Of a DNA stretch of 64,000 nt, positions 1-64,000 are shown one piece after another. The position numbers and the translations under genes were made by a program. Under the pieces are notes generated by a model. It was not told the DNA's origin and made no database searches. It saw only the letters and a program-made list of their open reading frames with translations. The stretch is taken from contig CAVSHF010000005.1 in assembly GCA_963727805.1 (NCBI GenBank), forward strand, positions 64,001 through 128,000, read 5' to 3'. The DNA is from an uncultured Nitrospiraceae bacterium. Lineage in GTDB: Bacteria > Nitrospirota > Thermodesulfovibrionia > Thermodesulfovibrionales > Dissulfurispiraceae. Position 1 is the first letter of the stretch. Every line of letters begins with the position of its first letter.

Positions 1-645
1 ATCTTTAGATTTCATGGTTTTGGCATAATCATTATCAGAAGTCGGTTTCACGGTAGATACATCAGTCCCGACCTTATGGCACCTGCACTCACCCTTACCG
101 GTTTTACAGTGCTCGCACGTGCAACCTGCGCCGCAGGAACAACCCTTTTCACCCGCCTTGCACTTACATTCGCCTTCTCCGGTTTTGCAATGTTCGCATT
201 GACAGTTCTGACCGCACTGGCAGCCTTTGGCCCCCTTATCGCACTTGCACTCGCCCTTACCGGTTTTACAGTGCTCGCACGTGCAACCTGCGCCGCAGGA
301 ACAACCCTTTTCACCCGCCTTGCACTTACATTCGCCTTCTCCGGTTTTGCAATGTTCGCATTGACAGTTCTGACCGCACTGGCAGCCTTTGGCCCCCTTA
401 TCGCACTTGCACTCGCCCTTACCGGTTTTACAGTGCTCGCACGTGCAACCTGCGCCGCAGGAACAACCCTTTTCACCCGCCTTGCACTTACATTCGCCTT
501 CTCCGGTTTTGCAATGTTCGCATTGACAGTTCTGACTGCACTGGCATTTAACGGTATCTCCAAAGGAGAGGTCAGAAAACGAAGCAGTGCCAAAAAATAC
601 TAGAACGCTGACAATCAAGCACGTCGAGAGAATTCTTTTCAACAT
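1..645 (-). CDS. Secreted cysteine-rich metallothionein-like repeat protein (3' end runs out of the window)
   Basis: Hand translation of the minus frame absent from the ORF track. AGGAGG RBS at 654-659, ATG at 645, signal-peptide-like MLKRILSTCLIVSVLVFFGTASFS, then six 27-aa units (CxCxxxCxCEHCKTGxGECKC). No stop before position 1. Confidence 0.85.
   Translation of the reverse strand, partial: MLKRILSTCLIVSVLVFFGTASFSDLSFGDTVKCQCSQNCQCEHCKTGEGECKCKAGEKGCSCGAGCTCEHCKTGKGECKCDKGAKGCQCGQNCQCEHCKTGEGECKCKAGEKGCSCGAGCTCEHCKTGKGECKCDKGAKGCQCGQNCQCEHCKTGEGECKCKAGEKGCSCGAGCTCEHCKTGKGECRCHKVGTDVSTVKPTSDNDYAKTMKSKD
79..546. repeat. Coding tandem repeat: about 2.9 copies of a 162-bp unit, each made of two diverged 81-bp subunits
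   Basis: Nearly identical blocks start at 84, 246 and 408. Confidence 0.95.
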
Positions 646-958
646 AAAGACGGCCTCCTTTCACAAAGTTTATGGTTTTAATTGTAACAAATCCATTGTG
701 CATTACACTACTAAAGTCAATTGGGAAGGTCAGGTTGTAATCAACGAAATTTTCATGATGCTCCTATGTTGCTTTTTGTGAGACCCAGATAGCGGCCAGG
801 GCGCGTCTGTCTTTATAGACTTGTAAGTGTGGTCTGCGATAAAAAACGCAACATGATAGGTCGTGATATCTACTTAAAATCTCCAGTGTGCGGATAAAGC
901 TCATTGCACGAGGTTTCTACTGGCTATCATCAGCTGTCAAGGCTGGCGTCTCATCGAC

Positions 959-1306
959 CTACAAGCGTTTGGATATAGAACTTAGCTTTCGATACAGCCA
1001 AGGAAGCATTTGGAACCACTGGAAATAACCTATAGCTACAAAAAGCGGCCAAATACATAGACTAAACACAATACCGCCCGGAACAACGAGACCGGTAAGG
1101 TTAAACAGCATTTCGAAAATCCCTCCCAGTAGCGCCATTAAAGCGTACCCAGTAGGGAACGTTAAAAATAGCATCAAATAACAAAACGCGATATCAGCAT
1201 CGGGGATCTCTCGTTGCACAAAAGCAAACACGAGGACGGCTAGGCAGCTACAGAGCCATAGTAACAAAAGGATGCGGCCAGGCAGTTTATGTGGAATCAT
1301 CATCAC
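959..1306 (-). CDS. Hypothetical membrane protein, possible orphan immunity protein
   Basis: 115 aa with about 3 hydrophobic segments; lies in a cluster of small co-oriented AT-rich genes. Confidence 0.6.
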   Translation of the reverse strand: MMMIPHKLPGRILLLLWLCSCLAVLVFAFVQREIPDADIAFCYLMLFLTFPTGYALMALLGGIFEMLFNLTGLVVPGGIVFSLCIWPLFVAIGYFQWFQMLPWLYRKLSSISKRL

Positions 1307-1913
1307 TTGACGATTAACCGCTAATTTCTTTTATTTTCATCTTTCTGCAACATAGCACAATTTTAGGCATCAGAATGAATAGTAACTCCTACATATAGAA
1401 TATCCAGGGGGGCTCACAATCTATCATAGAATCTTATAATCGCGAGTCGGCTCGCTACGCAACAGATACCATGTTACGACTGGTAATGCTCAAAGCTGAG
1501 TTGCCCAATTCGCTTAGTGTGGTTGTTGTGTGCACTCCTTTTCATGATCCTCCAGATAATGGCAACAGCTAACCGAGGCACAAGGCAGTTCCCCTTCCGG
1601 TGGTAGCCTCCGGGTGAAGCACCACCGGAGTGCGGCCAAACCAGAAACAGATAGTAGTATTGCCAGTAGTCCTACCCCGGCCAGCATAATAACTAGGCCG
1701 GCTGCCACTAGCTGTCCTGCCACTATCAGAAGCCTGATCGTTACTGACCTTGCCTTACACATAACCCACTTACTGCTGTTTTCCCCCACGCTGATCCAGC
1801 GCAGCTCCTAGTTATAGGTGCTTTCAATCCAGCGACTCCTGATCTGGCGTCTCTCGCTCACCAACAGTATTACCGAGGCGTCATAGTCCCGCTTGTGCTT
1901 TCCGTCTCATTGC

Positions 1914-2516
1914 TTATTTCTCTATTTCAGGCGGTATGCCAATTATCGGCAACTCGATGTCCGCTAAGTTTATTAGAATAATATTACTAAGCTTTGACAT
2001 CTCTATGACACGAGCAGCACGTGCCGTTACTATCGGTCCAAAAGAATCTTTTGGAAGAAAGAAATCGCACCCATCCCATTGATCTAATCCCACATGAAGG
2101 CCTTTGTAGAATTTCCCAACTGGTCCATTTGGAAGCAGCCGTTTCTCAATAATAGCGGATTTATTATAATCAATTGGCCCGCAGCGTCCAGTGATACTCA
2201 ACCCGTGAAACCCCGAAATCATCTCGCCATTTATTTTGCTCACGACAACTGGAAATACCATCCAACCAGTTAAACTATTCATCGTTAGAACATCTTTTAG
2301 TTTATCCGAAATAAGATACAAGCCTACCCGCCCAGTATCTAATACATCTCCTATTTTATGCCCATATTTATGCTTAAACTGTATTGGAAATTGAATATTC
2401 GCATAGTCGCCCATCAACAATGCAGCTTTGGCATATTTTCCGACTGTATGAACCTGAAAATTTGATGCTAGCAATTTGCTTCCAAAATCATAAAAATAGT
2501 TTATTTCTAGTTTCAT
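1914..2516 (-). CDS. Putative polymorphic-toxin immunity protein (Imm43/DUF1629-like)
   Basis: Motifs LISDKLKDVLTMNSLTGW, GLSITGRCGPID and WDGCDFF resemble this family. Start is likely the ATG at 2516 rather than 2603. Confidence 0.6.
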   Translation of the reverse strand: MKLEINYFYDFGSKLLASNFQVHTVGKYAKAALLMGDYANIQFPIQFKHKYGHKIGDVLDTGRVGLYLISDKLKDVLTMNSLTGWMVFPVVVSKINGEMISGFHGLSITGRCGPIDYNKSAIIEKRLLPNGPVGKFYKGLHVGLDQWDGCDFFLPKDSFGPIVTARAARVIEMSKLSNIILINLADIELPIIGIPPEIEK

Positions 2517-2650
2517 TCCTATTTCGTGGGCCAGCACGTTTGCAATGTCATATATATAAATACCGATCACATAGTGATTAAAAGTGTACAGCGATATGCA
2601 CATCCTTACCTATCTGATCGGGAGTGAACTGCCTTCTTATCTTCATTCAA

Positions 2651-2908
2651 TCATAAATTCTTAATGAATGCCCACATTAGAAACAAGGAGCAGATTAAAG
2701 CTAGTGCACCAACTACCCTAACATTTATCAAATAGCTAGCCGATTTCACAGAGTTCTTAAGCATATCACTATGAGCGGTAAGTCCTTGATTAACATTATT
2801 GATCGCAGAGGCCTGAATCTTCTCTGGGAATATCAAACAGACTATTCCAAGTAAGAACAGTAGCAATATAAAGAGCAATAAGCCAATAGTTTTCATGATG
2901 TTCACCAC
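2651..2908 (-). CDS. Small two-TM membrane protein, possible immunity protein
   Basis: Two hydrophobic helices; start overlaps the stop of the upstream Gly-rich fragment. Confidence 0.55.
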   Translation of the reverse strand: MVNIMKTIGLLLFILLLFLLGIVCLIFPEKIQASAINNVNQGLTAHSDMLKNSVKSASYLINVRVVGALALICSLFLMWAFIKNL

Positions 2909-3030
2909 TTACACCCAGAATTACCGGGGCCTTGGAATGAATAGTTATAGCTGCCTCCAAATTGAGGTGTGACTATGCCAGCACCTCTAGCAATTCCATT
3001 CCCCCGGAGACCCAGATACAGATGCGCCAT
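2902..3030 (-). pseudogene. Possible orphan Rhs/polymorphic toxin C-terminal tip
   Basis: Gly-rich GIARGAGIVTPQFGGSYNYSFQGPGNSGCKW* coupled to the downstream membrane gene. Confidence 0.35.
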
Positions 3031-3169
3031 CTTTCTGCAATATAGCACAAAATTGTTCCTACTTATACCCTTGATCCCGCCCGATATATCGAGGCTGCTT
3101 TGTTTCAACCGGCAATCATTAAGCTGAAACGCGCACAAGAAATCTAAACAGAAGTATAGAACGCTTGAT

Positions 3170-3589
3170 TTACGTGTTTTTACCTGTATGCCGTAATCTT
3201 GCAAACAAGCCACCTGAGAGTGCGAGCAACATGGCGACCCAGACGAACATGAAGTATGAGACCAAAACACCCAGAAATGCCTTAAATTCCCCCTGAACTA
3301 AAAAAATACCGCCGACAACAACCGGATGATCAACGAATAAAACCAGAGCCCCAACAAGAGACGCTCGCCAAAGTCCGCGCTTCTCAAAATGCACCGCGAC
3401 CCAGCCGGAATATACAACGATAGCTGCTCGAATTAGATTGAATGGAACTAAATAATCAAATGAGCTCCCACCCCCATGGGAGACGGATGCCGGCATAATG
3501 AGTCCAACAAGGTGCCAGAGCAACGAGTTCGCTGCTGCGACGACGAGTACCGATTTAACGGTTTGTAATTTGTCAAAGAGGCGTCGCAC
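3170..3589 (-). CDS. Hypothetical membrane protein (about 4 TM), probable gene cassette ORF
   Basis: Hydrophobic 139-aa ORF starting right after the attC-like site. Confidence 0.6.
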   Translation of the reverse strand: MRRLFDKLQTVKSVLVVAAANSLLWHLVGLIMPASVSHGGGSSFDYLVPFNLIRAAIVVYSGWVAVHFEKRGLWRASLVGALVLFVDHPVVVGGIFLVQGEFKAFLGVLVSYFMFVWVAMLLALSGGLFARLRHTGKNT

Positions 3590-3596
3590 CTGGGTT

Positions 3597-3661
3597 ACAC
3601 AAGGTAAAGCTTACAGGGAGGTGTAAGTTTCACGCCGATCCCGTGAAGCGCGTCGTTGTGC
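3597..3661 (-). mobile_element. Integron attC-like site with a degenerate R' box
   Basis: Minus strand reads GCACAAC (R'') - 5 bp - GCTTCACGGGA ... TCCCTGTAAGC - 5 bp - CTTGTGT (R'). It is a 65-bp imperfect hairpin with unpaired bases, just after a stop codon. Confidence 0.6.
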
Positions 3662-3667
3662 TTTAGT

Positions 3668-4009
3668 CTATTTACTTTCATTCTTATCCTGCATTCGCTT
3701 GCGGTGGCATTCAGGGCACCACTTTGGTTCGTTATATATATTGCCTTTTTGGATTTCAAAATATTATTTCTGTTGTTGCGCGGTCCAAACCTCTTTTTTG
3801 CCGCAGCCTGCACAAGTAAAGTGAATGTCTTTATAGTAGAATTTTGCGGCATAACCGCCACCATGGGCTTGACTATCAGGATCAGCAGACAATACACCTT
3901 TCGGAATTTCTACGCCTTTTACAATAAGGCCTTCTCGCTCCAGCCTTGTAACGCGTTTTTCTTCGCGTTTTCTCTTGATCGGATTTTTAGAAACTTGCTT
4001 TCTCATCAT
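3668..4009 (-). pseudogene. Zinc-ribbon domain protein (zf-trcl-like) with an in-frame TAA
   Basis: YYKDIHFTCAGCGKKEVWTAQQQK*YFEIQKGNIYNEPKWCPECHRKR; the second CxxC lies past the stop at 3764-3766. Confidence 0.75.
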
Positions 4010-4787
4010 TTTTCATATGCACAACAAGTATTAAACAACTTGGTCTTATCTGCCAAAAGTATATCACAATACAACAGAGATTATTCACGTATTCCTTTAA
4101 TATCATTTCGTTATAAATTAACAACTTCGCATTAGCTGCGAATTACATGCAAATACTAACTTGGTATAACATGGGCTTTATGGCAAAAGGGCAATCTGGA
4201 CCATGATTATTCCCAGTATCGACTGGCGAGATACGTGAAAAGTAGGGAGAAAAAGGGAGTCCTGAGCGAAGCCATATTTGTATCGGTAATCATCGATTCA
4301 GCAAAGCTGTGGAAACTAGAGGTTACTTGGTGAACCCAACAGTGAGAACCTCCACAACGCATTTCACTTCTAAGGAATTAGATGTGACTGACGGAGGGAC
4401 TCAAGAACTGTCCGCTATGATCCAGAACCGGTGTCCGCGTTGCTCCGAAATAGGTTTCCTCAAACGCCGAAATACGCAATTACTAAACGCCCGCTGCAAG
4501 CCGTTACTACCGTTTGTTTATTTTGGGATTATACGTCCACAAGACTGTCGGAGAGCATTATGTCCACTTGATTATCCGCAAACGCTAACTTGCAGATTAT
4601 GCCTATTTGCGGAAGAATCAGATAGAAATCTTTGCAGATCAGCAAGTTGCTTGAGCTCTAGAAGAACTGTCGGACATAAGCACAGTCTGCCCAAGCTCAG
4701 GAAAGATGCTAAGAATTTCATGAAGGATGCTGAAGATTATTCTGGAAGACAGTAGTTATGCATCATACAAATGCTCTTCATTTCATT

Positions 4788-5345
4788 TTAAGGTGTTTGT
4801 GGTGGAAGTACGTTCATTTTTAGTGATTCAATACGGCCTTTGAACATCTTGTAGGATTCTCCAGATTTTTTCCTGTTCAGCTCCATAATACCTCTGACGT
4901 TTGCATCTGCTGAGACTAGTATATCTTGAAGGCGCCGGTTTTCCTTCCTTTGACGTTCTATCTTCGCGCTTTGATCAACTTTTTCATCTTGCCCGCTAAC
5001 CGATTTTGCCCTGGCAGCAATAGCATCGCTGATAAACCTGTCAAGATCACTTGAAGCACTGTTTGTATAAAAGACGCTCAATGGAACATCTACGACATTT
5101 GCGGATTTCTCCTCTGTAGCATCTAGAAATGAGTTTACGGATAAAGCTGCCTTGTTATATGAATCAATAAGATGTTTGCGGGTATCGTCGGAAAGGTCTT
5201 TTCTTGCGCTTGTTTCATCAAGCAGATAGTTTGCAAGAAGGATTTTCTCGCATGCAACCCTCAGTCCGTCAGTTCTTTTGACTTCGTAGCACCCTGCCAA
5301 AAGCAGGCATACTAAAGTAAATACAATACAAACTGTTTTCTTCAT
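4788..5345 (-). CDS. Hypothetical lipoprotein
   Basis: MKK, a hydrophobic stretch and lipobox LAGC. Confidence 0.75.
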   Translation of the reverse strand: MKKTVCIVFTLVCLLLAGCYEVKRTDGLRVACEKILLANYLLDETSARKDLSDDTRKHLIDSYNKAALSVNSFLDATEEKSANVVDVPLSVFYTNSASSDLDRFISDAIAARAKSVSGQDEKVDQSAKIERQRKENRRLQDILVSADANVRGIMELNRKKSGESYKMFKGRIESLKMNVLPPQTP

Positions 5346-5831
5346 AGAGGTGCCTTCACGTTATTTGTGTGGTGTTTCGAAAGTTTTTACTGGTATGGTC
5401 TGTCCAGTGCTTCTTCATAGTGTCATTGCTAGGAGAAGCACGGCGAAGCAATTTTGCAGCAAGATTCTTCGCTCCGCTCTCATCAATAGACTTATTATAG
5501 TGATTTATGCTAATCATTACCACATTATACAATTTGATTAAACCCAATTACCCTATCAAAAATATAAACAAAAATGGATCGTTGCCTCATGTAAGCATAA
5601 AGTTATGCAATAAGCCTTGCCCATTGAATGCGCATTTAAGTGGTCGCGATGAGACATTCCAGAAAAAAGACTTCTCTGATATCTCACTGCTTTTTGTGGA
5701 GTACAACCTTGAATAATTACTCTTCTATCATACCTCAAAACGTTTATTTGTAGAGACTATGCTTGATTGCGAGCCTCCTGTGTTTTTCAGCAATTGATCT
5801 TTTTGCGAAGTAGTACCCATATAGAGGGCAC

Positions 5832-6217
5832 GTGTCAAGAGAAAAAATATCCCTATCAAGAAAATCCTTCTTGTTTTTTTGTTTCAGTTATCATCGTCTA
5901 TCACCAGTGCCGTTTTTTCTTTAAATAGTGTGTCAGCCTTCACTGCACCACGCACCCATCAGGATTAAGGTAATGCCCCAAAACATGTACTGCAAGGCAA
6001 AACCCTTTCCGCTCATATGCGGACCAGAAAACCTTCGGTACCGGGCCGGGTCCATTTGTTATATCTCAGATTGCATGGTTATTAACCAACCCTCACTGGC
6101 TCCCGACGCGGACAGTAAAGACGTCGATAACTTTTATGTTACTGCAGGGGACGGGTTCCAATCAGGTGCTTGGCTTATTTCCAACTACTCAGTAGGTTCA
6201 TCGTCCCCTCCAGGTCC
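5832..6217 (-). ncRNA. Predicted seekRNA/bridge-RNA region of the IS1111-type element
   Basis: About 385 bp of non-coding sequence between the transposase stop and the right IR, the position known for IS1111 guide RNAs. Inferred from position only. Confidence 0.55.
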
Positions 6218-7237
6218 TTATTGAAATGCTTTATCCGGCATAAATATAACCCCATCCCTCATTATGTAATACGCAGCTCGGGTCAACTTGTGCGCCAGAG
6301 CGTTATGTGCAATAGGAGCGTTTGTTTGTTTCAGCTTGCGCTGATAATATTTTTGTGCTTCGGCATCGTGGAACCGTGCATGGTCTGAAGCTTCAGAAAA
6401 CGCCCATGCCAGATACTTATTGCCGTTCTTCCTGTTGCCGGTCCCTTTCTTTTTGTCATTACTAAACCTTCCTGCTGGGACTTTCCTGCAATATGAAGCG
6501 TAGTTACCCACAGTCCGGAATCGTTCGATAGAACCAGTTTCTAACATGATAGTAGATGCGAGGATCTTGCCTACCCCAGGCATGCTTAGAAGACGGTCAT
6601 AGGGATGACTTAAATGTATCCTTCCATCAATGATGTCCTCCATCGCCTTGATCTGTCTGGTCATGAAGTCTATAGTTTCCTTGCTCACTTTACCCGCCAG
6701 TGCAAGATCCTCGTTGTCAGCAAACAGAGGACTTACTCTGTCCGTCATCAGAAACTTCACATCGTTTGACTTCAGTCTACTGCCCAGGTTCCGTGCCACA
6801 ATGTTCTGCAGGCTTACGATGAGAGATGTCCTCAGTTTTACTAAATGTCCTCTCTTCCTCAACAGATCCCTTATCGGCCGTTCTTCTTTTGGGTAAATGT
6901 ACCCCTTAGGCAATATGCACAATCGAAGCATCTCGGCAAGCCAGAAGGCATCATGTTTGTCAGTAGAGTATTTCAGTCCAGCGTATTGCTGAGCTTTCAT
7001 TACGTTGGCTAGATGCACCTGGTATCCCTCCTCCTTAAGTAGATCAACTAAAAAGTACCAGTTGTATGTCGACTCTACAACAATCCCTTCAATGTCACCT
7101 TTGTATGGCCTGAGCGTTTCCTTGATTGTTGCCGGTTCATTAAGGATCTTCTTCTTGAAAATCCTCTTTCCAGTTTCATCGATGATTCCCACATACGAGT
7201 TGTTTGAATGTAAATCAAAACCTGCGTATAATCCCAT
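6218..7237 (-). CDS. IS110-family DEDD transposase/recombinase
   Basis: GFDLHS, VVESTYNWY, TDKHDA, PGVG and GNKYLAWAFSEA motifs; RBS AGGAGG before the ATG at 7237. Confidence 0.95.
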   Translation of the reverse strand: MGLYAGFDLHSNNSYVGIIDETGKRIFKKKILNEPATIKETLRPYKGDIEGIVVESTYNWYFLVDLLKEEGYQVHLANVMKAQQYAGLKYSTDKHDAFWLAEMLRLCILPKGYIYPKEERPIRDLLRKRGHLVKLRTSLIVSLQNIVARNLGSRLKSNDVKFLMTDRVSPLFADNEDLALAGKVSKETIDFMTRQIKAMEDIIDGRIHLSHPYDRLLSMPGVGKILASTIMLETGSIERFRTVGNYASYCRKVPAGRFSNDKKKGTGNRKNGNKYLAWAFSEASDHARFHDAEAQKYYQRKLKQTNAPIAHNALAHKLTRAAYYIMRDGVIFMPDKAFQ

Positions 7238-7706
7238 ACGGCACCTCCTAAAGGTTAAGATTGGCGTCTTGCCTTTGAGCATATCAATATATGATATGCT
7301 CGGGAGGTGCCCTTTATATGATTATCAGGTGTATCAATCATCCGGAAGGTGTTAACCGCCACTGATAGTTACTTGGTAGAGTTATGAGCGGACCCCTGAT
7401 GATTATCACTTATACACCGCAGGTTAATTAGAATACCTGTATGTGGTTGTTATTGTGAAAATTTAACATCAGCTGTTCACGTTAGTCTTTAAAGACCTGT
7501 TGGTGCAGTTAGCAGCTTCAGAGCAAATAAGCCATTGGTACTAGCCAAGTAATAGAGTAATTAACAGACTGTATAGTTTTTGTATACCAGACAGGAACAA
7601 ACACGGGATAACACCGTGCAAGATGTTATCCCGTGAGTTTCAGATTATCAAGCAATATCAAACATTATCTACCAGCGGATGAAACACAGTATCTCCTTGA
7701 AAATAC

Positions 7707-7749
7707 ATAGCATTCAAGAGGTCGACGGTTCGATCCCATTCAGCTCCAC
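7707..7749 (+). repeat. tRNA-Ala(GGC) 3'-half fragment 1 (att core)
   Basis: ATAGCATTCAAGAGGTCGACGGTTCGATCCCATTCAGCTCCA: anticodon loop to discriminator base only, no D arm. Confidence 0.85.
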
Positions 7750-7814
7750 TCTAGGATCTCTTTTATTCTCAATACTTTTGCTTGCCATTGAAATTCTCGC
7801 CCTTACCCGATGAC

Positions 7815-8245
7815 TGCTTGACTGTATAGTTTTTGTATAGTTGGCCCTTCGTTCAAAGTTATATCGAGCATATCATCCGCCTATGTCATATGCGCCGCCG
7901 CATGATGAGCATACTAAGAATCATTTTGATATCCTTATGCCCCAAGAGTTCCTTTACTGTGGTATTTTTTACTCCCGCCATAGCCAAATGAGAAGCAAAC
8001 GTATGCCTCAAGTCTTGAAATTGAAAAATCTGTAATGCCTGCTTTCCTGCAAGCCGTGTGAACGTTCCGCTTCATGTCTTGATAGGGGTTACCTGTTGCA
8101 TTGTCAAGGAAGAAGTAAGGAATATCAGGCTGCCGTGTGACGCAATCGCTTGTTTTTTCCAGGAAGCATTTTTACTGTCCTGATACGCTTCAGGATTTCC
8201 TCTTCCGCCATATCCCATTCAACTGCCTTCGTGAACATATGGGAA
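7815..8245 (-). pseudogene. Tyrosine integrase remnant, internally deleted and frameshifted
   Basis: Fragments KAVEWDMAEEEILKRIRTVKMLPGKNKRLR, TGNPYQDMKRNVHTACRKAGITDF and DLRHTFASHLAMAGVKNTTVKELLGHKDIKM. Confidence 0.85.
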
Positions 8246-8312
8246 ATTCTCAATCTTTGGTGTCCACTTTTTATTAGCGCACCTCACCATTTACACGTTG
8301 AAATTCTTCTTC

Positions 8313-8660
8313 TCAATCTGACTTCTTTATTACGACCGTCTTTGAACTTAATCCAAGTTCAGCATTTGCCCGCGCTTGCTCTATGCCATTGACTAGTCGT
8401 TCAATCCTGCCTCCGCTTCCAATCTTATCTATTTTCTTCTTGGCTTCAGATCCTGCTTGCCGCTCTCGCATATCTCTGTCCTTCTGAATGATCGCTCGGT
8501 TATATTCTCGATTTTTTTCATCATCCTTTGATGTATAGTTTTTTAAATCCGCATTGGTAAATACTTTGCCGCCGACATCAGCAGCCCAAGATTGGGTGAT
8601 ACTTACTATAATTATCGCCACAATCGCTAGACTAATAATAGCTTTTCTCTTGTGTTTCAT
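8313..8660 (-). CDS. Hypothetical secreted protein
   Basis: Signal peptide ending SWA-AD, followed by KVFTNADL. Confidence 0.65.
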   Translation of the reverse strand: MKHKRKAIISLAIVAIIIVSITQSWAADVGGKVFTNADLKNYTSKDDEKNREYNRAIIQKDRDMRERQAGSEAKKKIDKIGSGGRIERLVNGIEQARANAELGLSSKTVVIKKSD

Positions 8661-8722
8661 GATCTCACCATTACTCGCAATATGTTATCACAATATACAT
8701 TCTATCGCAATTAAATCAACCC

Positions 8723-8902
8723 ATGCAGTTTCTATGCAGTTCGTATCTGAAAAGATATGCAAGAAAAGCATATCATCTATTCTTTGTTATACGATCCCAG
8801 GTAAGTATTTGCACGGATTTGAAAGGATATAACATGTAACTTGACTGACTACAGCATACATGGCATTCAAGCGGTCGACAGTTCGATTCCGTTCAGCTCC
8901 AC
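8723..8902 (+). repeat. att module 2: arm-type repeats plus tRNA-Ala 3' half (8860-8901)
   Basis: ATGCAGT twice at an 11-bp period, then ATGGCATTCAAG...CAGCTCCA; homologous to 9317-9497. Confidence 0.85.
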
Positions 8903-9097
8903 TTTCCAAAATGGCAACATACAAATTCTCGGCTCTCCGGGCCTCTTCCTATTGTCTGGCTCATTGCTGTCAGGGCTGCTGGGTGACAGCTCTCAGGCGT
9001 TAAGCTAAATGGTGGAAGTCTCTTCAGCATTTGTTCTTAATGCCTTATACATCATTGTAGTGCCACTAAAGGAAAACATTTCTTCAATGAAAAAGGA

Positions 9098-9247
9098 TCA
9101 TTCAGAAGATCCTCTTTTTTTCAACAGCTCGGCGAGCTTGCTTTTAGCCCTTTTCAATTCTTCAGGAGGCATTTTTATTTTCCTGATGGCGGCATCGATT
9201 AGGGCAATCGCTGCCTTCAGCTCACGATTCAAGTTATCCATACTCAT
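9098..9247 (-). CDS. Small helical hypothetical protein (49 aa)
   Basis: Hand translation MSMDNLNRELKAAIALIDAAIRKIKMPPEELKRAKSKLAELLKKRGSSE*; lies between two att modules. Confidence 0.45.
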   Translation of the reverse strand: MSMDNLNRELKAAIALIDAAIRKIKMPPEELKRAKSKLAELLKKRGSSE

Positions 9248-9316
9248 AGTTTTATTATAATTAGAAATGCGTCCAACCCATAATCGTGAAATTTATAATA
9301 TTTTCCCTTCATGTTC

Positions 9317-9497
9317 TATGCAGTAAATATGCAGTTCGTATCTGAAAAGATATGAAAGGAATGCACATCGTCTATTCTGTTTGGCAATGAGAGATGAAAG
9401 GATTTACAAAGATTTGAAAGAATATGGAAGGTAACTTGACTGATTAAAGCATACATGGCATTCAAGAGGTCGACGGTTCGATCCCGTTCAGCTCCAC
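9317..9497 (+). repeat. att module 3: arm-type repeats plus tRNA-Ala 3' half (9455-9496)
   Basis: TATGCAGT twice at an 11-bp period, then ATGGCATTCAAGAGGTCGACGGTTCGATCCCGTTCAGCTCCA. Confidence 0.85.
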
Positions 9498-9550
9498 TTT
9501 TGAAATCAATAAGTCATGCCATACCATGATTGCCATGAAAAATATGTCTG

Positions 9551-9766
9551 CTAAACTGGCGGATGTCCATCATAACTAAGGTGCCAGGATTGTTTATTGC
9601 AGCTAAAACATTCAACAAACCAAAGATAGCAAGTCTTATTGTTAGACGAATCAACTATTGAATGCCCGACGATTTGATACTGCACATTTCTTCGATTACA
9701 GAATGGACAATCATAAACATGTGTATCCCTGGAATTTTTTTCATCCAAATGAGACATGTCCTGCAT
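9551..9766 (-). pseudogene. Truncated Zn-finger N-terminus (CPFC...CFSC), possibly from a DUF4145-type protein
   Basis: Two CxxC motifs, then an early stop next to att module 3. Confidence 0.4.
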
Positions 9767-9874
9767 CTTGAATCCTCTCCACCATCTTCTTTTGCACCTG
9801 ACAATAATTATATGAGCTGGCTATTTCTTATATTCATGCTAATACTATTTTACAGCACCCATCCTTCGAAAACA

Positions 9875-10057
9875 ATAAAGCTCCGCGGGCTGAAGCCCAC
9901 GGATTCTAGGGCATAATCGGAGACGGAATGGCCCTAACCGCGCCATTCCATCTCCGACTTAAAAGCCTCCGCTACGCAGGTGAAGACTTGCTCCGCTCCG
10001 GGCAGCCCTTTCATCCCCAGGTTTAACAACCTGGGGTTTTCTGGCAGTTTTGATAAA
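9875..10057. mobile_element. Non-autonomous palindromic element resembling IS200/IS605 ends (PATE/MITE-like)
   Basis: GC-rich patch with hairpins CCGCGGGCTGAAGCCCACGG, TCGGAGACGGAATGG...CCATTCCATCTCCGA and CCCCAGGTTTAACAACCTGGGG; no ORF. Confidence 0.55.
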
Positions 10058-10662
10058 ATCAGAGACCTGATCATTGAACGAATCACACACAAACTACTCA
10101 TGCAATAGTGAGAATATTCTTTAGCGAGATAATCTCAGCATAGATGCGAGAAGCGAAACCCTTGAATCATAATCAGTAAAGTGGGGTGCATCCTGGGGAG
10201 CAAGAACAAGGTTAATTGTCTTCGCCTGAGAATGTTTTGACCCGTCTATATGCCGAATATCAGACTTGATGAGTTCCAATACTCTCCTGATTATCAAAAG
10301 GAATCCTCATGGGTTGAGCAGCCGTTCGTCTTAAAGTTTTCAGGCAGTACTATTGCAAAAAAACCTTTTTCCCAGCTGCGGATAGCAAATTTTGGCAACA
10401 CTCTGAATCGGGTGGATCTTGATCAGATAGTTACACTAATCCGCCCTTGGTTTACCTCCCGAAGATTTCACATAGTATGGTAAGGTGTTTTCAGAGAGTA
10501 AGACGCCTATACTGTTACTCCCTAAAAAGTTGTTATTTAGGAATATAGGCGTTCAATCCTATGGTCAGCGGCTTACCGGAGTGCGAATTCCGGTGATGGC
10601 GAACAGTCGTACCGGAGGATGGCGAACACTTGTGAAACATAGCGAAGCCGTACCAAAACATC

Positions 10663-11412
10663 TTACGAAGAGCGTTCGCCTTTCGTCAAGTTTGTCTTAG
10701 TTTTTCTCATCGATTCCCCCTTCAAAGCTATCTTGTGTGAGTTATGGACGATCCTGTCGAGTATGGCGTCGGCTTTTGTAGGCTCTCCGATGCGATCATG
10801 CCATTTGGCGACGGGATACTGGCTGGTAATGATTGTCGCCTTCAGTCCGTATCTGTCTTCCATGACTTCCAGGAAGTGGCCGCGCTCATCTTCGGTCAGT
10901 GGGTCCACGGCCTAGTCGTCAATGACGAGGAGGTCCGTCTTTGCAAGTCTTCCGAGGACCTTGAAGAAACTGCCGTCAGCTTTTGCGATCCTCAGTTCCT
11001 CAAAGAGTCTTGTTGACCGGTATTGTACAGCAGTGAATCCTTCTCGGCAGGCTTTGTTTGCAAATGCCTCAGCAAGGTAAGTCTTGCCGATGCCGGTCGG
11101 CCCGGTGATGATCACGTTATGGTGAGAAGAGATCCACTGACAAGAAGCCAGGGATCTGACGACCGACTTGTCCAATCCCCTGGGGTGCTGATAGTCGATA
11201 TCTTCGATAGTGGCATTGGTCCTCAGGCGTGCCGACTTGAGTCTTCTGGTGAGTTTTCTGTCTTCCCTGGAAGTCCACTCCCGGTCTATGATCATGGAGA
11301 ATCTGTCCTCAAAGCTCAGTTTGCTAAGGGAAGGATTTTCAAGCTGCTCCTTCACTGCCGTTGCCATTGTGTAGAGCTTCATCTGTGAGAGTTTTTCGAT
11401 AGTGTGATTCAA
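10663..11412 (-). pseudogene. istB: IS21 ATPase IstB with an in-frame TAG
   Basis: Walker A GPTGIGKT and Walker B LLVIDD, then TAG (10912-10914) where Trp is typical; the frame continues to ADAILDRIVHN. Confidence 0.9.
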
Positions 11413-11505
11413 CGCTGTCTCCTCCTTATAGTATGTTTGTGGGGTATACTTACCCCTTGGTCGATGCCTCTTAGTCGATTATTGGCTGTCCCATAGAGCC
11501 GATTT

Positions 11506-13044
11506 TCAACTGAAGTACTCTTTACCGCGGATATTGTCATGATATAAGGGCGGGGTCACCTCCTTTTGTTCGGTGATCGGAGTACGGTCGAATCCGGTTT
11601 CAAGCATCTACTTGACGCTCTTGTATGAATAAGCCTTGATATGGACCGCCCGCATAGAGGCTGCTTCCAGTCTCTCCGGCGAGTACTTCTTGCCGAGTCT
11701 CAACAGGCCTATGCAGGATTTGAATCCCTGCTCCGGATGCGGTCGCGTCGTCAGGATGGTCTCGACAAGCTTTGCTGTGGCAGCGCCGGTCTGCTCCGCC
11801 CAGTGGATGATCCTCGATGGAGTCCACTCAAGATGCTTCTGATGCGCTTTCGGCATGTGCTCAGCAATGGTCGTATATCCTCTTGCTTTGAAGCTGCGTT
11901 GATGAGTCACAATGCGATTGTTATTGTGGAAGATCTCCACCGTATCGACAGTGAGGAAGGCTTCTAACTTTTTGCCACGAAGCTGGTAAGGAACGCTGTA
12001 GTAATGATCCGCTACGTCGACGTGGTAATCGATGTTAACCGTTGGCCGCTTGAAGTCGATGTATCGATACCGCTCAACGGGCAAAGGCTTAAGATACGGC
12101 CTCTCAAGGGTCTCAAAGAGTTCTCTGCGGGTACTGTTTAGTTTCCTGAACTTCCGGGTATTCAAGCGTTCCAGAAGTTCCCTGATGCTGGCATTAAGCT
12201 CCTCGATACTGAAGAATGTGTGATTCCTCAATGCCGCAATGATCCATCGGGTGACCAGCAATACTCCGGCTTCCACCTTTGCCTTATCTTTTGGTTTATA
12301 CGGACGTGCAGGGATAATGGCGGTACCGTAGTGCTGCGCCAGACTCAGATATACGGGGTTGAGGTCGGGTTCGTATCGGCAGGACTTCGATACGGCTGCT
12401 CGGATATTGTCCGGGACAAGGATTTGGCTCACACCGTGAAAGTATTCAAAAGCATTGATGTGAGCCTTGATCCAGAAGGGGAGACTCTGCGATGGGAGCG
12501 CTTCGACATAGGTATAGTTGCTTGCTCCAAGGACTGCCACAAAGATCTGAGCTTCGGTGCTCTCGCCTGTGAAAGAGTCGACGATGGGTATCCCTTTGCC
12601 GGCAAAGTCGATGAACATCTTCTCGCCGGCGCGATGCTCCTGCCGTAAACTTATCTCAAGGTTTTTCTCCCAGCGGTGATAATGCTCGCAGAACTGCGTA
12701 AACTGATACCCCTCAGGATGCCGTTCTTTATATTCGAGCCACAACAGTTGAAGGGTGACGCCCTTTTTGCGAAGCTCGCGATGAATCTCCTCCATTGGGG
12801 GCAGCGGACGAAGGGCTGTCTTCCGACTACTGCGTTCACTGAGCATAGCTTCAAGCTTTGCGTCATCAAGGTCCTCAGGAAGTGGCCATGAAATGCCCTT
12901 ATCCTGGGCCTTCTGGACATAATCTACTACTGTGCTCGGCGACACTTTGCAGGACCGGCTTATTTGTCGTTTGCCAAGATGCAGCCCATAATACAGTCTT
13001 AAGATTTCTCTAACCATCCGCATGGATATACCCCTATTAGCCAT
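11506..13044 (-). pseudogene. istA: IS21 transposase IstA, C-terminal tail cut off by a stop/frameshift near 11608
   Basis: DDE core (FIDFAG, VPDN, KDKAKVE). The tail LKTGFDR...HDNIRGKEYFS* is in another frame. Confidence 0.9.
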
Positions 13045-13571: not shown

Positions 13572-14378
13572 TCAGTAATTTACCGGTATACGCATTACAT
13601 ACTGGTAAGGTGGTGTCTCGTAACCGATCAGTGCTGGATTCAGATCTCTTATTGCATTGACCGTAGTGCTATAAAGCCTGGCTATTTTCCCCAGACGGAT
13701 ACGCTTCAGTGTGATTACTTCTTTATAGGTGACAGTTTTGTTTTGAACCGTATTGTCCGATGCAAAACCATACTTCTCAGGTTCCTCTGAGATTGTAAAG
13801 ACGGCGAGCAGGCGAGCAATGTACCGATTGATGACAGCCGGGAACCGTGGTTCGACCGAATTATTTTTCGCGATAATGCGCTTTATTTTCCCTTCACCCG
13901 CATTATAGGCAGCCAGTACGATGTCCCATTCACCGAATATGGCATAAAGGTCTTTTAAATAATCAGCCGCCGCATAAGTCGATTTGACGGGATCCTTTCG
14001 CTCATCGACATAAGCATCCATCCTCAGACCGTACCTCGCTGCCGTGCCTTTCATGAATTGCCAGAGTCCGACTGCATCTCTAGGCCCCACCGAAACAGGC
14101 GAAAAGCCGCTCTCGATGAAGGGGAGATATGCCATTTCATGGGGAATCTCTTTTTTGCCGAATATCGTCTTGATGAAATCGATATACCTGAAGGAATTGT
14201 TGCGCCGTTGCTCGAATTCACTAGGTATCTTACTGGTGAAAAATTCCACGGCGCGTTCGTACATTCCACTGATATGTTCTTTCTCGCTGATTTCCTGAAA
14301 CATCTCGCCGGAAATGCCGGTAACCGGCAGCCCTAAAAGAAAAATTAGCAATGTTGCGGACATGACTATCTTAATCAT
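13572..14378 (-). CDS. Lytic transglycosylase (MltD-like SLT domain plus LysM-like C-terminus)
   Basis: PFIESGF, AVGLWQFM, DERKDPVKSTYAAA and LAAYNAGEG motifs. Confidence 0.9.
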   Translation of the reverse strand: MIKIVMSATLLIFLLGLPVTGISGEMFQEISEKEHISGMYERAVEFFTSKIPSEFEQRRNNSFRYIDFIKTIFGKKEIPHEMAYLPFIESGFSPVSVGPRDAVGLWQFMKGTAARYGLRMDAYVDERKDPVKSTYAAADYLKDLYAIFGEWDIVLAAYNAGEGKIKRIIAKNNSVEPRFPAVINRYIARLLAVFTISEEPEKYGFASDNTVQNKTVTYKEVITLKRIRLGKIARLYSTTVNAIRDLNPALIGYETPPYQYVMRIPVNY

Positions 14379-62232: not shown

Positions 62233-64000
62233 ATGGATGAGAATGTGATAAAGAAAATAAAGGTAAAACCCCCTAAACCGACTACCGCGGTGAAGAAGTC
62301 TTCATCTAAAACATCCAAACCAAAATCTCAAAGATCTCTTGTTGGGGAACATGCCTCTTCAACGCTGCAATCCAAGAAGGCAGCGAATCGCTCACAGCAA
62401 TCTGAAACAGAAGTCGTCGGCGTGTTAGCCTCCGCCGGCAATATCACTTCGCGCAAGCGCATGGAGATGGCGTTGCAAGAAAGCGAAGAGGCATTTCGGA
62501 CTTTGGCTGAAACTGTGCCGCAGATTGTCTGGGCTACCAGGGCCGACGGCTGGAACGTCTTTTTCAATAAACGGTGGGTGGAATACACGGGGTTGACGCT
62601 GGAGGAGAGTTACGGCCACGGCTGGAATATTCCCTTTCATCCTGATGATAAGAAGAGAGCGTGGGATACCTGGCAGCAGGCCACGAAACATGGTGCCACT
62701 TATTCTCTTGAAGTACGCCTGCGACGAGCGGATGGCGTCTATCGCTGGTGGTTGGTTCGCGGCATGCCATTGCTCGACACGACAGGGAAAATTATCAAGT
62801 GGTTTGGCACCTGCACCGATATTGATGATCTGAAGCAGGCGGAACGTCGTCAGACTCTTTCGACTGATATCCTGGGCATTCTTAATAATCCACCTGCACT
62901 GGATGACGCAATCAGCAAAATTATCACAACACTTAAACGGGAAACGGGGTTCGATGCTATAGGGATTCGCCTGCAACGTGGTGATGACTTCCCGTATATT
63001 GCTCAAGACGGTTTTTCTAAGGAATTTATACTCGCCGAAAATACACTGGCTGTTCGTACCCAGGATGGAGGAGTTTGCGTAGATAAGGACGGCAACGTTT
63101 GCCTGGAATGCACATGCGGCATGGTAATTTCCGGAAAGACTGATCCGGCAAATCCCATTTTTACTCCAAAGGGAAGTTGCTGGACCAATGAGTCATGTGC
63201 AAGACCAGACCGCCCTATTGAAGACAAGAGACTTCATCCTCGCGATCGCTGCACACATGAAGGCTTCCATTCCGTTGCGCTTATCCCACTGAGGGCCGGA
63301 AAACGAATTATAGGCATACTGCAACTTAACGACCGCAGGCCCAATCAGTTCACACTCGAAATGATCTCTTTCCTGGAAGATTTGGGCGCACTTATTGGTA
63401 TCGCGGTTGCCCGCAAACGAGCAGAGGATGAGATGCACAAAGCAAGGAAACGGGCCGATACTCTGAACTTAGAGCTCGAAGCCACCAATCGGGAATTGGA
63501 GGAACGGGTAGCCGCTCGTACCGCCGATCTCAGCAGGACCAATGAACAACTCACGCAAGAGATCGGTGAACGGAAACGGGCCGAGGAACAATTGACTCAT
63601 GCATTGAAGGAAGCCAAGCAGCGCGCCGGCGAAACCGAGGCAGTACTAACGGCGATCAACGACGCAGTTCTAGTATATGACGCCGACATGAACGTCGTAC
63701 GTACAGATCGCGGATTTATTCCTGTGTACGGGTTTGATCCCGTTGGGATGAACGTCCGCGAGATCATCGAGCAAACCCAGTGTCGCTACCTCGATGACCG
63801 TCCGTTTCTCTTTGAAGATCAACCAATACCGCGCACCCTGCGCGGTGAAAAGGTTCTCAATCGACAGTTCCGGATTACGCGGCTCGACGGCCAAGAGCGC
63901 ATACTTGAAACCTCATCCACCCCCTTACTCATTGGCGACCGCCTTGTCGGCACTGTTACCGTCTGGCACGATATCACAGAGCGCAAGAAAGCAGAAGAGG
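62233..64000 (+). CDS. PAS/GAF sensor protein, runs off the window end (absent from the ORF track)
   Basis: Open frame from the ATG at 62233: FRTLAETVPQIVW..HPDD..WFGTCTDI PAS domain, Cys-rich GAF domain, coiled coil and a second PAS ending DITERK. Confidence 0.9.
   Translation, partial: MDENVIKKIKVKPPKPTTAVKKSSSKTSKPKSQRSLVGEHASSTLQSKKAANRSQQSETEVVGVLASAGNITSRKRMEMALQESEEAFRTLAETVPQIVWATRADGWNVFFNKRWVEYTGLTLEESYGHGWNIPFHPDDKKRAWDTWQQATKHGATYSLEVRLRRADGVYRWWLVRGMPLLDTTGKIIKWFGTCTDIDDLKQAERRQTLSTDILGILNNPPALDDAISKIITTLKRETGFDAIGIRLQRGDDFPYIAQDGFSKEFILAENTLAVRTQDGGVCVDKDGNVCLECTCGMVISGKTDPANPIFTPKGSCWTNESCARPDRPIEDKRLHPRDRCTHEGFHSVALIPLRAGKRIIGILQLNDRRPNQFTLEMISFLEDLGALIGIAVARKRAEDEMHKARKRADTLNLELEATNRELEERVAARTADLSRTNEQLTQEIGERKRAEEQLTHALKEAKQRAGETEAVLTAINDAVLVYDADMNVVRTDRGFIPVYGFDPVGMNVREIIEQTQCRYLDDRPFLFEDQPIPRTLRGEKVLNRQFRITRLDGQERILETSSTPLLIGDRLVGTVTVWHDITERKKAEE

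Follow-up and report, generated by a model that had tools for sequence, protein, structure and literature searches.

The window (the whole 64,000-nucleotide stretch of DNA analysed, G000:C5:64001-128000) begins within a minus-strand gene that an earlier note had described as a hidden gene for an exported, cysteine-rich, metallothionein-like protein. The gene is real. Completed from the genome contig beyond the window edge, it encodes a protein of 317 residues (P0001) in which a predicted signal peptide is followed by six modules of seven cysteines each and by a YtkA/CtaK-like domain. On balance, we favour the reading that P0001 stores Cu(I) in the periplasm, with a copper chaperone attached to the store. 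The architecture is new, built from known kinds of parts.

The gene and its predicted export signal

The start of the gene is marked by a ribosome-binding site, AGGAGG, read in the sequence at 659-654 (654..659, minus strand), and by an ATG at 645-643. No stop interrupts the frame before the window edge, and it runs on to a stop at G000:C5:63692. The first 215 of the 317 codons occupy 1..645 and the rest lie outside the window; the C-terminus, for which a leftward extension of the contig had been proposed, is thereby recovered. A putative extended -10 promoter element, TGtTACAAT, is placed from the sequence at 681..689 on the minus strand. It was not listed by a consensus promoter scan; the close relative L107 carries TTGTAA-16-TATAAT with TG at the equivalent position.

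Comparison of 137 distinct module cores identifies the reading frame. Differences at codon positions 1, 2 and 3 amount to 0.16, 0.17 and 0.54, respectively, a contrast inflated by the choice of cores on nine fixed residues, and both TGC and TGT are used at all seven cysteine positions. The third-position excess and the free choice of cysteine codon argue that the cysteine-rich frame is the coding one. All five remaining frames are interrupted by stops, the number of affected cores ranging from 5 to 111 out of 137. The open reading frames at 48-593 and 76-603 are accordingly shadows, as the earlier note had said.

Residues 1 to about 29 (559..645, minus strand) are predicted to form a Sec signal peptide from their composition and from similar N-termini in the family, with a cleavage site placed by inference. 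The segment has a basic start and a hydropathy peak of 3.3 at residues 9-18, forms a helix at residues 2-19 of the predicted model and ends in AxA-like sites in relatives, in agreement with the export-signal-like N-terminus first noticed. It contains neither a Tat RR motif nor a lipobox, and the lack of RR suggests export as an unfolded chain.

The seven-cysteine module

Residues 34-189 contain 42 cysteines, six histidines and no aromatic residue, arranged as six modules of 27 residues (81 nucleotides each) that alternate between types A and B. The sequence parse on the minus strand places modules 1, 3 and 5 (type A) at 466..546, 304..384 and 142..222 and modules 2, 4 and 6 (type B) at 385..465, 223..303 and 61..141, with the last cysteine at 81-79. 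The DNA of module 4 is identical to that of module 2 and the DNA of module 5 to that of module 3. This exact alternation, with seven cysteines and one histidine per module, is as the earlier note described it, and its exclusion of a c-type cytochrome also stands, since P0001 and 54 cysteine-rich relatives have no CxxCH motif. The array repeats with a period of 162 bases (2.9 copies, 98% matches), a similarity that indicates recent expansion. Modules 2-5 are near-identical and one short-read contig skips 324 bases (four modules), either because the repeat collapsed in assembly or because a two-module allele exists; six is thus the likely rather than the fixed number of modules at this locus. 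Six are also present in L120 and L121.

Read across the repeats, the module is CxC-x6-CxC-x3-CxC-x2-C. The nearest pattern is the metallothionein box of Neurospora and Agaricus, CXC-X5-CXC-X3-CXC-X2-C, tandem copies of which in Cryptococcus give additive Cu5 clusters (PMC4755600). P0001 does not match this box exactly, having x6; over 109 family boxes the spacer is x5 in four, x6 in 62 and x7 in 30. The fungal seven-cysteine copper thioneins (Neurospora/Agaricus metallothionein, CnMT1/CnMT2 of Cryptococcus and TmMT of Tremella; PMC4755600) likewise have tandem CxC-xn-CxC-x3-CxC-x2-C boxes in variable number with Gly/Lys/Ala spacers, whereas the bacterial modules have a spacer of mostly 6-8 rather than 5, a conserved histidine and a permuted end register, and belong to a protein with a predicted signal peptide and a fused, folded chaperone domain. 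The likeness is proposed only in the sense of working alike. It is probably convergent, judging from the register that P0001 has in common with a local six-cysteine sister family, which aligns in the register of P0001 itself (hhalign probability 94%, against 56% for a reversed control).

Across the family, the cysteine regions (4473 residues) are 27% cysteine, lack Phe and Tyr and contain one Trp, and the module region of P0001 shows the metallothionein trait of being rich in CxC/CxxC and poor in aromatic residues. Its predicted model has little structure and no long helices in this part. A scan of 16 relatives placed P0150 alone above the cut-off of Metallothio_2 (26.7 versus 23 bits), a score with a low-complexity bias. 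A comparison with HMBD (PF19335), for which only three distinct sequences were used, gave an hhalign probability below 2%.

The total number of cysteines is a multiple of seven in 40 of 54 protein-search matches (one 5'-cut protein dropped) and in 86 of 107 distinct complete regions (open-ended reading frames and L117, L146, L201 and L207 left out), figures to which tandem duplication, kinship and possible assembly collapse contribute. The module can be divided into a five-cysteine core and a CxC pair, which occur in both orders in the family. Where both ends are cores (14 regions), an extra internal pair is always present; where both ends are pairs (one region), two cores lie next to each other. 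A surplus core was seen in none of the 91 regions that parsed cleanly. This pattern suggests selection on the seven-cysteine unit.

The unnamed sister family (L209-L213, L222:2687-, L224 and the P0158 cluster) is of exported type, has 12 or 18 cysteines and occurs in Nitrospirota; in L222 one copy adjoins a module-YtkA gene.

The YtkA-like domain

The linker and the start of the C-terminal domain occupy 1..60 on the minus strand, the domain itself lying mostly beyond the window at G000:C5:63752-64009. Residues 214-298 match the Pfam family YtkA-like (PF13115) with 53 bits against a gathering cut-off of 25.9. The further metal-binding domain that had been guessed at is thus of the YtkA/CtaK copper-chaperone kind, which points to copper as the metal and to delivery beside sequestration. 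The question of a match to a described family is answered in two parts: this domain has one, while the modules and the architecture do not.

The domain carries M260-P-E-H263-G-H265, M291, W294 and W295 and belongs to an MPxHGHG/PGWW subtype. W294 is at least 90% conserved (one search pattern included that residue). W295 aligns with a CrdA tryptophan and is probably structural. Besides the Pfam match, P0001 has in common with Bacillus subtilis YtkA/CtaK and the YtkA domain of YcnJ a Met-containing loop and, by prediction, an extracytoplasmic location; CtaK supports copper loading of the CuA centre (PMC13344008, PMC12362106). P0001 differs from them in having Cys modules, in lacking a lipobox and a CopC-CopD fusion and in belonging to the subtype whose gene neighbours that of a di-heme enzyme. 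Helicobacter pylori CrdA (PDB 9ll2, 9ll4), unlike P0001, is without Cys or His and belongs to an efflux locus (PMC9182242). The CrdA-like MPAMPGM subtype is represented by a separate paralogue in the same genome (C3:1045701).

The di-heme partner gene

A di-heme gene of the bCcP/MauG family is present in 77 of 80 loci of the YtkA subtype of P0001, module-free relatives and several phyla included. Of 34 module-bearing YtkA loci with room for it, 32 have it no more than 600 bases away. No such neighbour was seen at 30 CrdA-like YtkA loci (1.5 kb flanks), eight C-terminal-module loci or six stand-alone loci. The partner carries an extra invariant Cys pair and an invariant tyrosine (64/64) at the position of Met in canonical peroxidases, which we take to be the position of the MauG ligand tyrosine. 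MauG has Tyr-His heme ligation (PMC6405878). Five partners fall below the cut-offs of both curated profiles, those of MauG and MbnH: 143-169 bits for TIGR03791 (cut-off 443.85) and 120-147 for TIGR04039 (cut-off 362.85).

MbnP/MbnH, CorA and MopE (PMC11951088) resemble the paired loci of the relatives in that a copper-type gene is tightly paired with a bCcP/MauG di-heme gene and that His, Met and Trp are conserved around the presumed site; these belong to a different protein family, have WxW rather than WW and contrast with P0001 in that its partner gene is decayed. MbnH makes kynurenine in the MbnP copper site (PMC11951088). By analogy, and given its near-invariance, W294 may be suggested, speculatively and with considerable doubt, as a kynurenine target of the partner enzyme.

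The combination of an MPxHGHG/PGWW YtkA gene and a Tyr-type di-heme gene is a widespread two-gene unit (L022-L101) in Nitrospirota, Chloroflexota, Proteobacteria, Aminicenantes and others. The di-heme gene is frameshifted in L029, L044 and L058, by sequencing error or decay. In one genome (G129) there are three module-YtkA paralogues (L202, L215, L222), and a di-heme gene, complete or partial, comes after each of them.

Family and architectures

A protein search gave 176 matches, and 54 of 121 proteins (P0001 and the best 120 of the 176) have at least eight cysteines. In the source records they are called 'FixH family', 'YtkA-like' or hypothetical and, among the matches listed, they come from Nitrospirota (Thermodesulfovibrionales, Dissulfurispiraceae) and Desulfobulbaceae. 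With a profile of the module, only 14 clusters were found among 1.84 billion representatives, and 13 positives in 401 genomes of the phylum, eight with the seven-cysteine family and five with the six-cysteine sister family.

Four architectures were found. In the first, as in P0001, a signal is followed by one to six modules and YtkA; in the second, a signal and a different YtkA subtype precede two to five modules. In the third, signal and modules stand alone at one syntenic locus, with one (L164), two (L141, L144, L145) or three (L107, L108) modules, a hairpin 3' of the stop and no YtkA remnant; P0122, P0123 and P0152, known as protein sequences alone, resemble these forms. In the fourth, signal and YtkA occur without modules, inside the clade of P0001 itself (support 98, quick tree), where they stand together with forms of two, four, five and six modules. 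Copy number thus varies from 0 to 6, as the earlier note had anticipated. The C-terminal-module proteins P0162 and L165 have a further, different cysteine-rich tail (49 Cys in P0162), and L037 has a frameshift between modules and YtkA, by sequencing error or decay.

No natural exported bacterial metallothionein, metallothionein-YtkA fusion or YtkA/di-heme pair was found in a search of the open-access literature (PMC and bioRxiv). SmtA/BmtA and MymT are also cysteine-rich bacterial metal binders but are small, single-domain, reviewed under the cytosolic pool and without a family match to P0001 (PMC7558416). The nearest functional analogue is Csp1, which is exported, cysteine-based and holds many Cu(I) per chain (PMC7558416). 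Csp1 is a Tat-exported, rigid four-helix bundle (PMC7558416). P0001, by contrast, has no RR motif and a signal predicted to be of Sec type; it is built of repeats, with little predicted structure and without long helices in its Cys region, and is fused to a chaperone-type domain.

Weighing the explanations

Several observations weigh against a copper reservoir coupled to a chaperone. P0001 scores below the Pfam metallothionein cut-off (19.4 versus 31.8 bits), the multiples of seven, with their contribution from duplication and kinship, fail in 21 of the 107 regions and the natural ends of the array are in the permuted register common with the sister family. The modules are dispensable, since P0137, P0143 and P0147 are near-identical to modular proteins yet module-free. 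At the locus itself, mobile and hypothetical genes surround the gene, with no adjacent copper gene and no copper-regulator site seen. Similarity to relatives extends for 117 bases past the stop and across the partner start, but the partner ATG is lost and only about 100 decayed bases remain (C5 ~63575-63680), with no intact di-heme gene nearby. Without a copper neighbour and with the partner lost, this copy may be partly orphaned. Of 13 genomes that encode the partner enzyme, 11 have a strong COX2 match, versus 26 of 68 overall, but most of them are in two genera, and the oxidase link across the 68 genomes is weak, being confounded by kinship. Finally, a histidine precedes the fifth cysteine in 153 of 158 cores, and Cys/His ligand sets, as in SmtA, suit Zn too.

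That histidine leads to the most credible alternative, which we still consider rather unlikely: a general soft-metal sponge (Zn, Cd, Hg, Ag or mixed) binding through Cys7 and His, with the YtkA fusion serving only to anchor or co-express the modules. The stand-alone exported forms, in a locus where no copper gene was seen, would suit it, as would the sole PDB sequence match, a weak one to plant Ec metallothionein (E 2), and the preference of multidomain snail metallothioneins with CxC-rich repeats for Cd or Zn (PMC11645667). Two separate fusions, each to a YtkA-family domain, and a spacing one residue off a box shown to be Cu-preferring speak against it.

Less probable again is a redox device, in which the cysteines would buffer thiols or take up electrons for the neighbouring di-heme peroxidase-like enzyme, or would form a spacer held by disulfides, rather than store metal. 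Periplasmic conditions are usually oxidising, and the proximity of the di-heme gene to module-bearing YtkA genes fits; however, that gene tracks the YtkA subtype rather than the modules, being kept beside module-free relatives and absent from all C-terminal-module and stand-alone loci. The odd number of cysteines per module also argues against this reading, and an all-disulfide state is made less likely by a search of the 100% complete genome in which DsbB and VKOR were not found and two DsbD/CcdA genes were. A periplasmic electron or iron carrier, with iron or an Fe-S cluster bound in each module, is very improbable: the CxxC pairs and a lineage with many anaerobes are in its favour, but exported Fe-S proteins normally use Tat, P0001 has a Sec-type signal and no Fe-S family match was found in Pfam, NCBIfam or PDB. 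We give slightly less credence still to a precursor for enzymatic Cys modification. Bufferins and oxazolins, which are copper-binding peptides, have the same layout of a signal peptide and Cys/Gly/Lys repeats, but MNIO/DUF692 (PF05114) was not found in the genome (a control genome was positive) or seen among inspected neighbours, and ten family members gave no NCBIfam bufferin match at E up to 1.

Proposed mechanism and significance

In the copper-reservoir model the chain would be exported unfolded via Sec and its thiols kept reduced in a cell with DsbD/CcdA but no DsbB/VKOR found. Each module would then form a Cu(I)-thiolate cluster, of about five Cu by analogy with the fungal seven-cysteine boxes, giving up to about 30 per chain. 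The Met/His site of YtkA would load the modules, or draw from them, and hand copper on; a possible client is the CuA of the caa3-type oxidase encoded, with its CuA motif, in the genome. Capacity would be set by gain and loss of repeats. Both the 'metal sponge' of the earlier note and its scaling of capacity with repeat number are extrapolated here from the fungal copper thioneins (PMC4755600). In relatives, the YtkA domain may be modified or served by the MauG/MbnH-like enzyme whose gene follows directly.

Only a few bacterial metallothioneins have been described; they are small and are regarded as cytosolic. Csp1, the known exported store of copper, is built as a rigid bundle. If our model is correct, a Sec-exported, repeat-built thionein with its chaperone would be a second way of banking periplasmic copper, with storage coupled directly to delivery. 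Nature offers a ready-made series, with module counts of 0, 2, 4, 5 and 6 in near-identical proteins and of 1, 2 and 3 in the stand-alone peptides. The pairing of the YtkA subtype with the MauG-like clade suggests what the substrate of this orphan family of di-heme enzymes may be, and a small exported high-capacity binder might be of interest for metal recovery. A bolder and doubtful proposal is that of a natural bacterial periplasmic metallothionein system in which the fungal-convergent seven-cysteine Cu(I) module acts alone, as an exported peptide of 63-117 residues, or as a plug-in magazine of 1-6 units that supplies a YtkA chaperone, with the Trp of the chaperone oxidised by a dedicated Tyr-ligated MauG-like enzyme; this would constitute a new copper pathway with a protein-derived cofactor.

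Genomic surroundings

An intact di-heme gene of the same clade is located elsewhere in the genome (C3:981633-982907), where it follows a double-YtkA gene in a copper cluster (C3:981633-987648). The wider cluster, G000:C3:981150-987648, encodes CopC, CopD-YtkA, a His/Met-rich protein, the double YtkA and the di-heme enzyme, and a 133-residue open reading frame with a cysteine-rich tail directly follows the di-heme gene.

The region around the P0001 gene is variable (window 900-13000, L001:1900-13600), with short minus-strand hypothetical genes, HicB, several transposases and an Imm11-like gene at 1914-2603. A 48-base tRNA-end-like repeat occurs at 7703 and 8856, and a short repeat at L001 ~13630-13680 recurs near window position 3600. 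A group II intron of 613 bases without an open reading frame (L001:13839-14451, G000:C5:62839-63451) lies 240 bases downstream of the gene. It matches Rfam RF01999 and RF00029, has ten near-identical copies in the genome including itself and, on this pattern, is active-looking and apparently non-autonomous.
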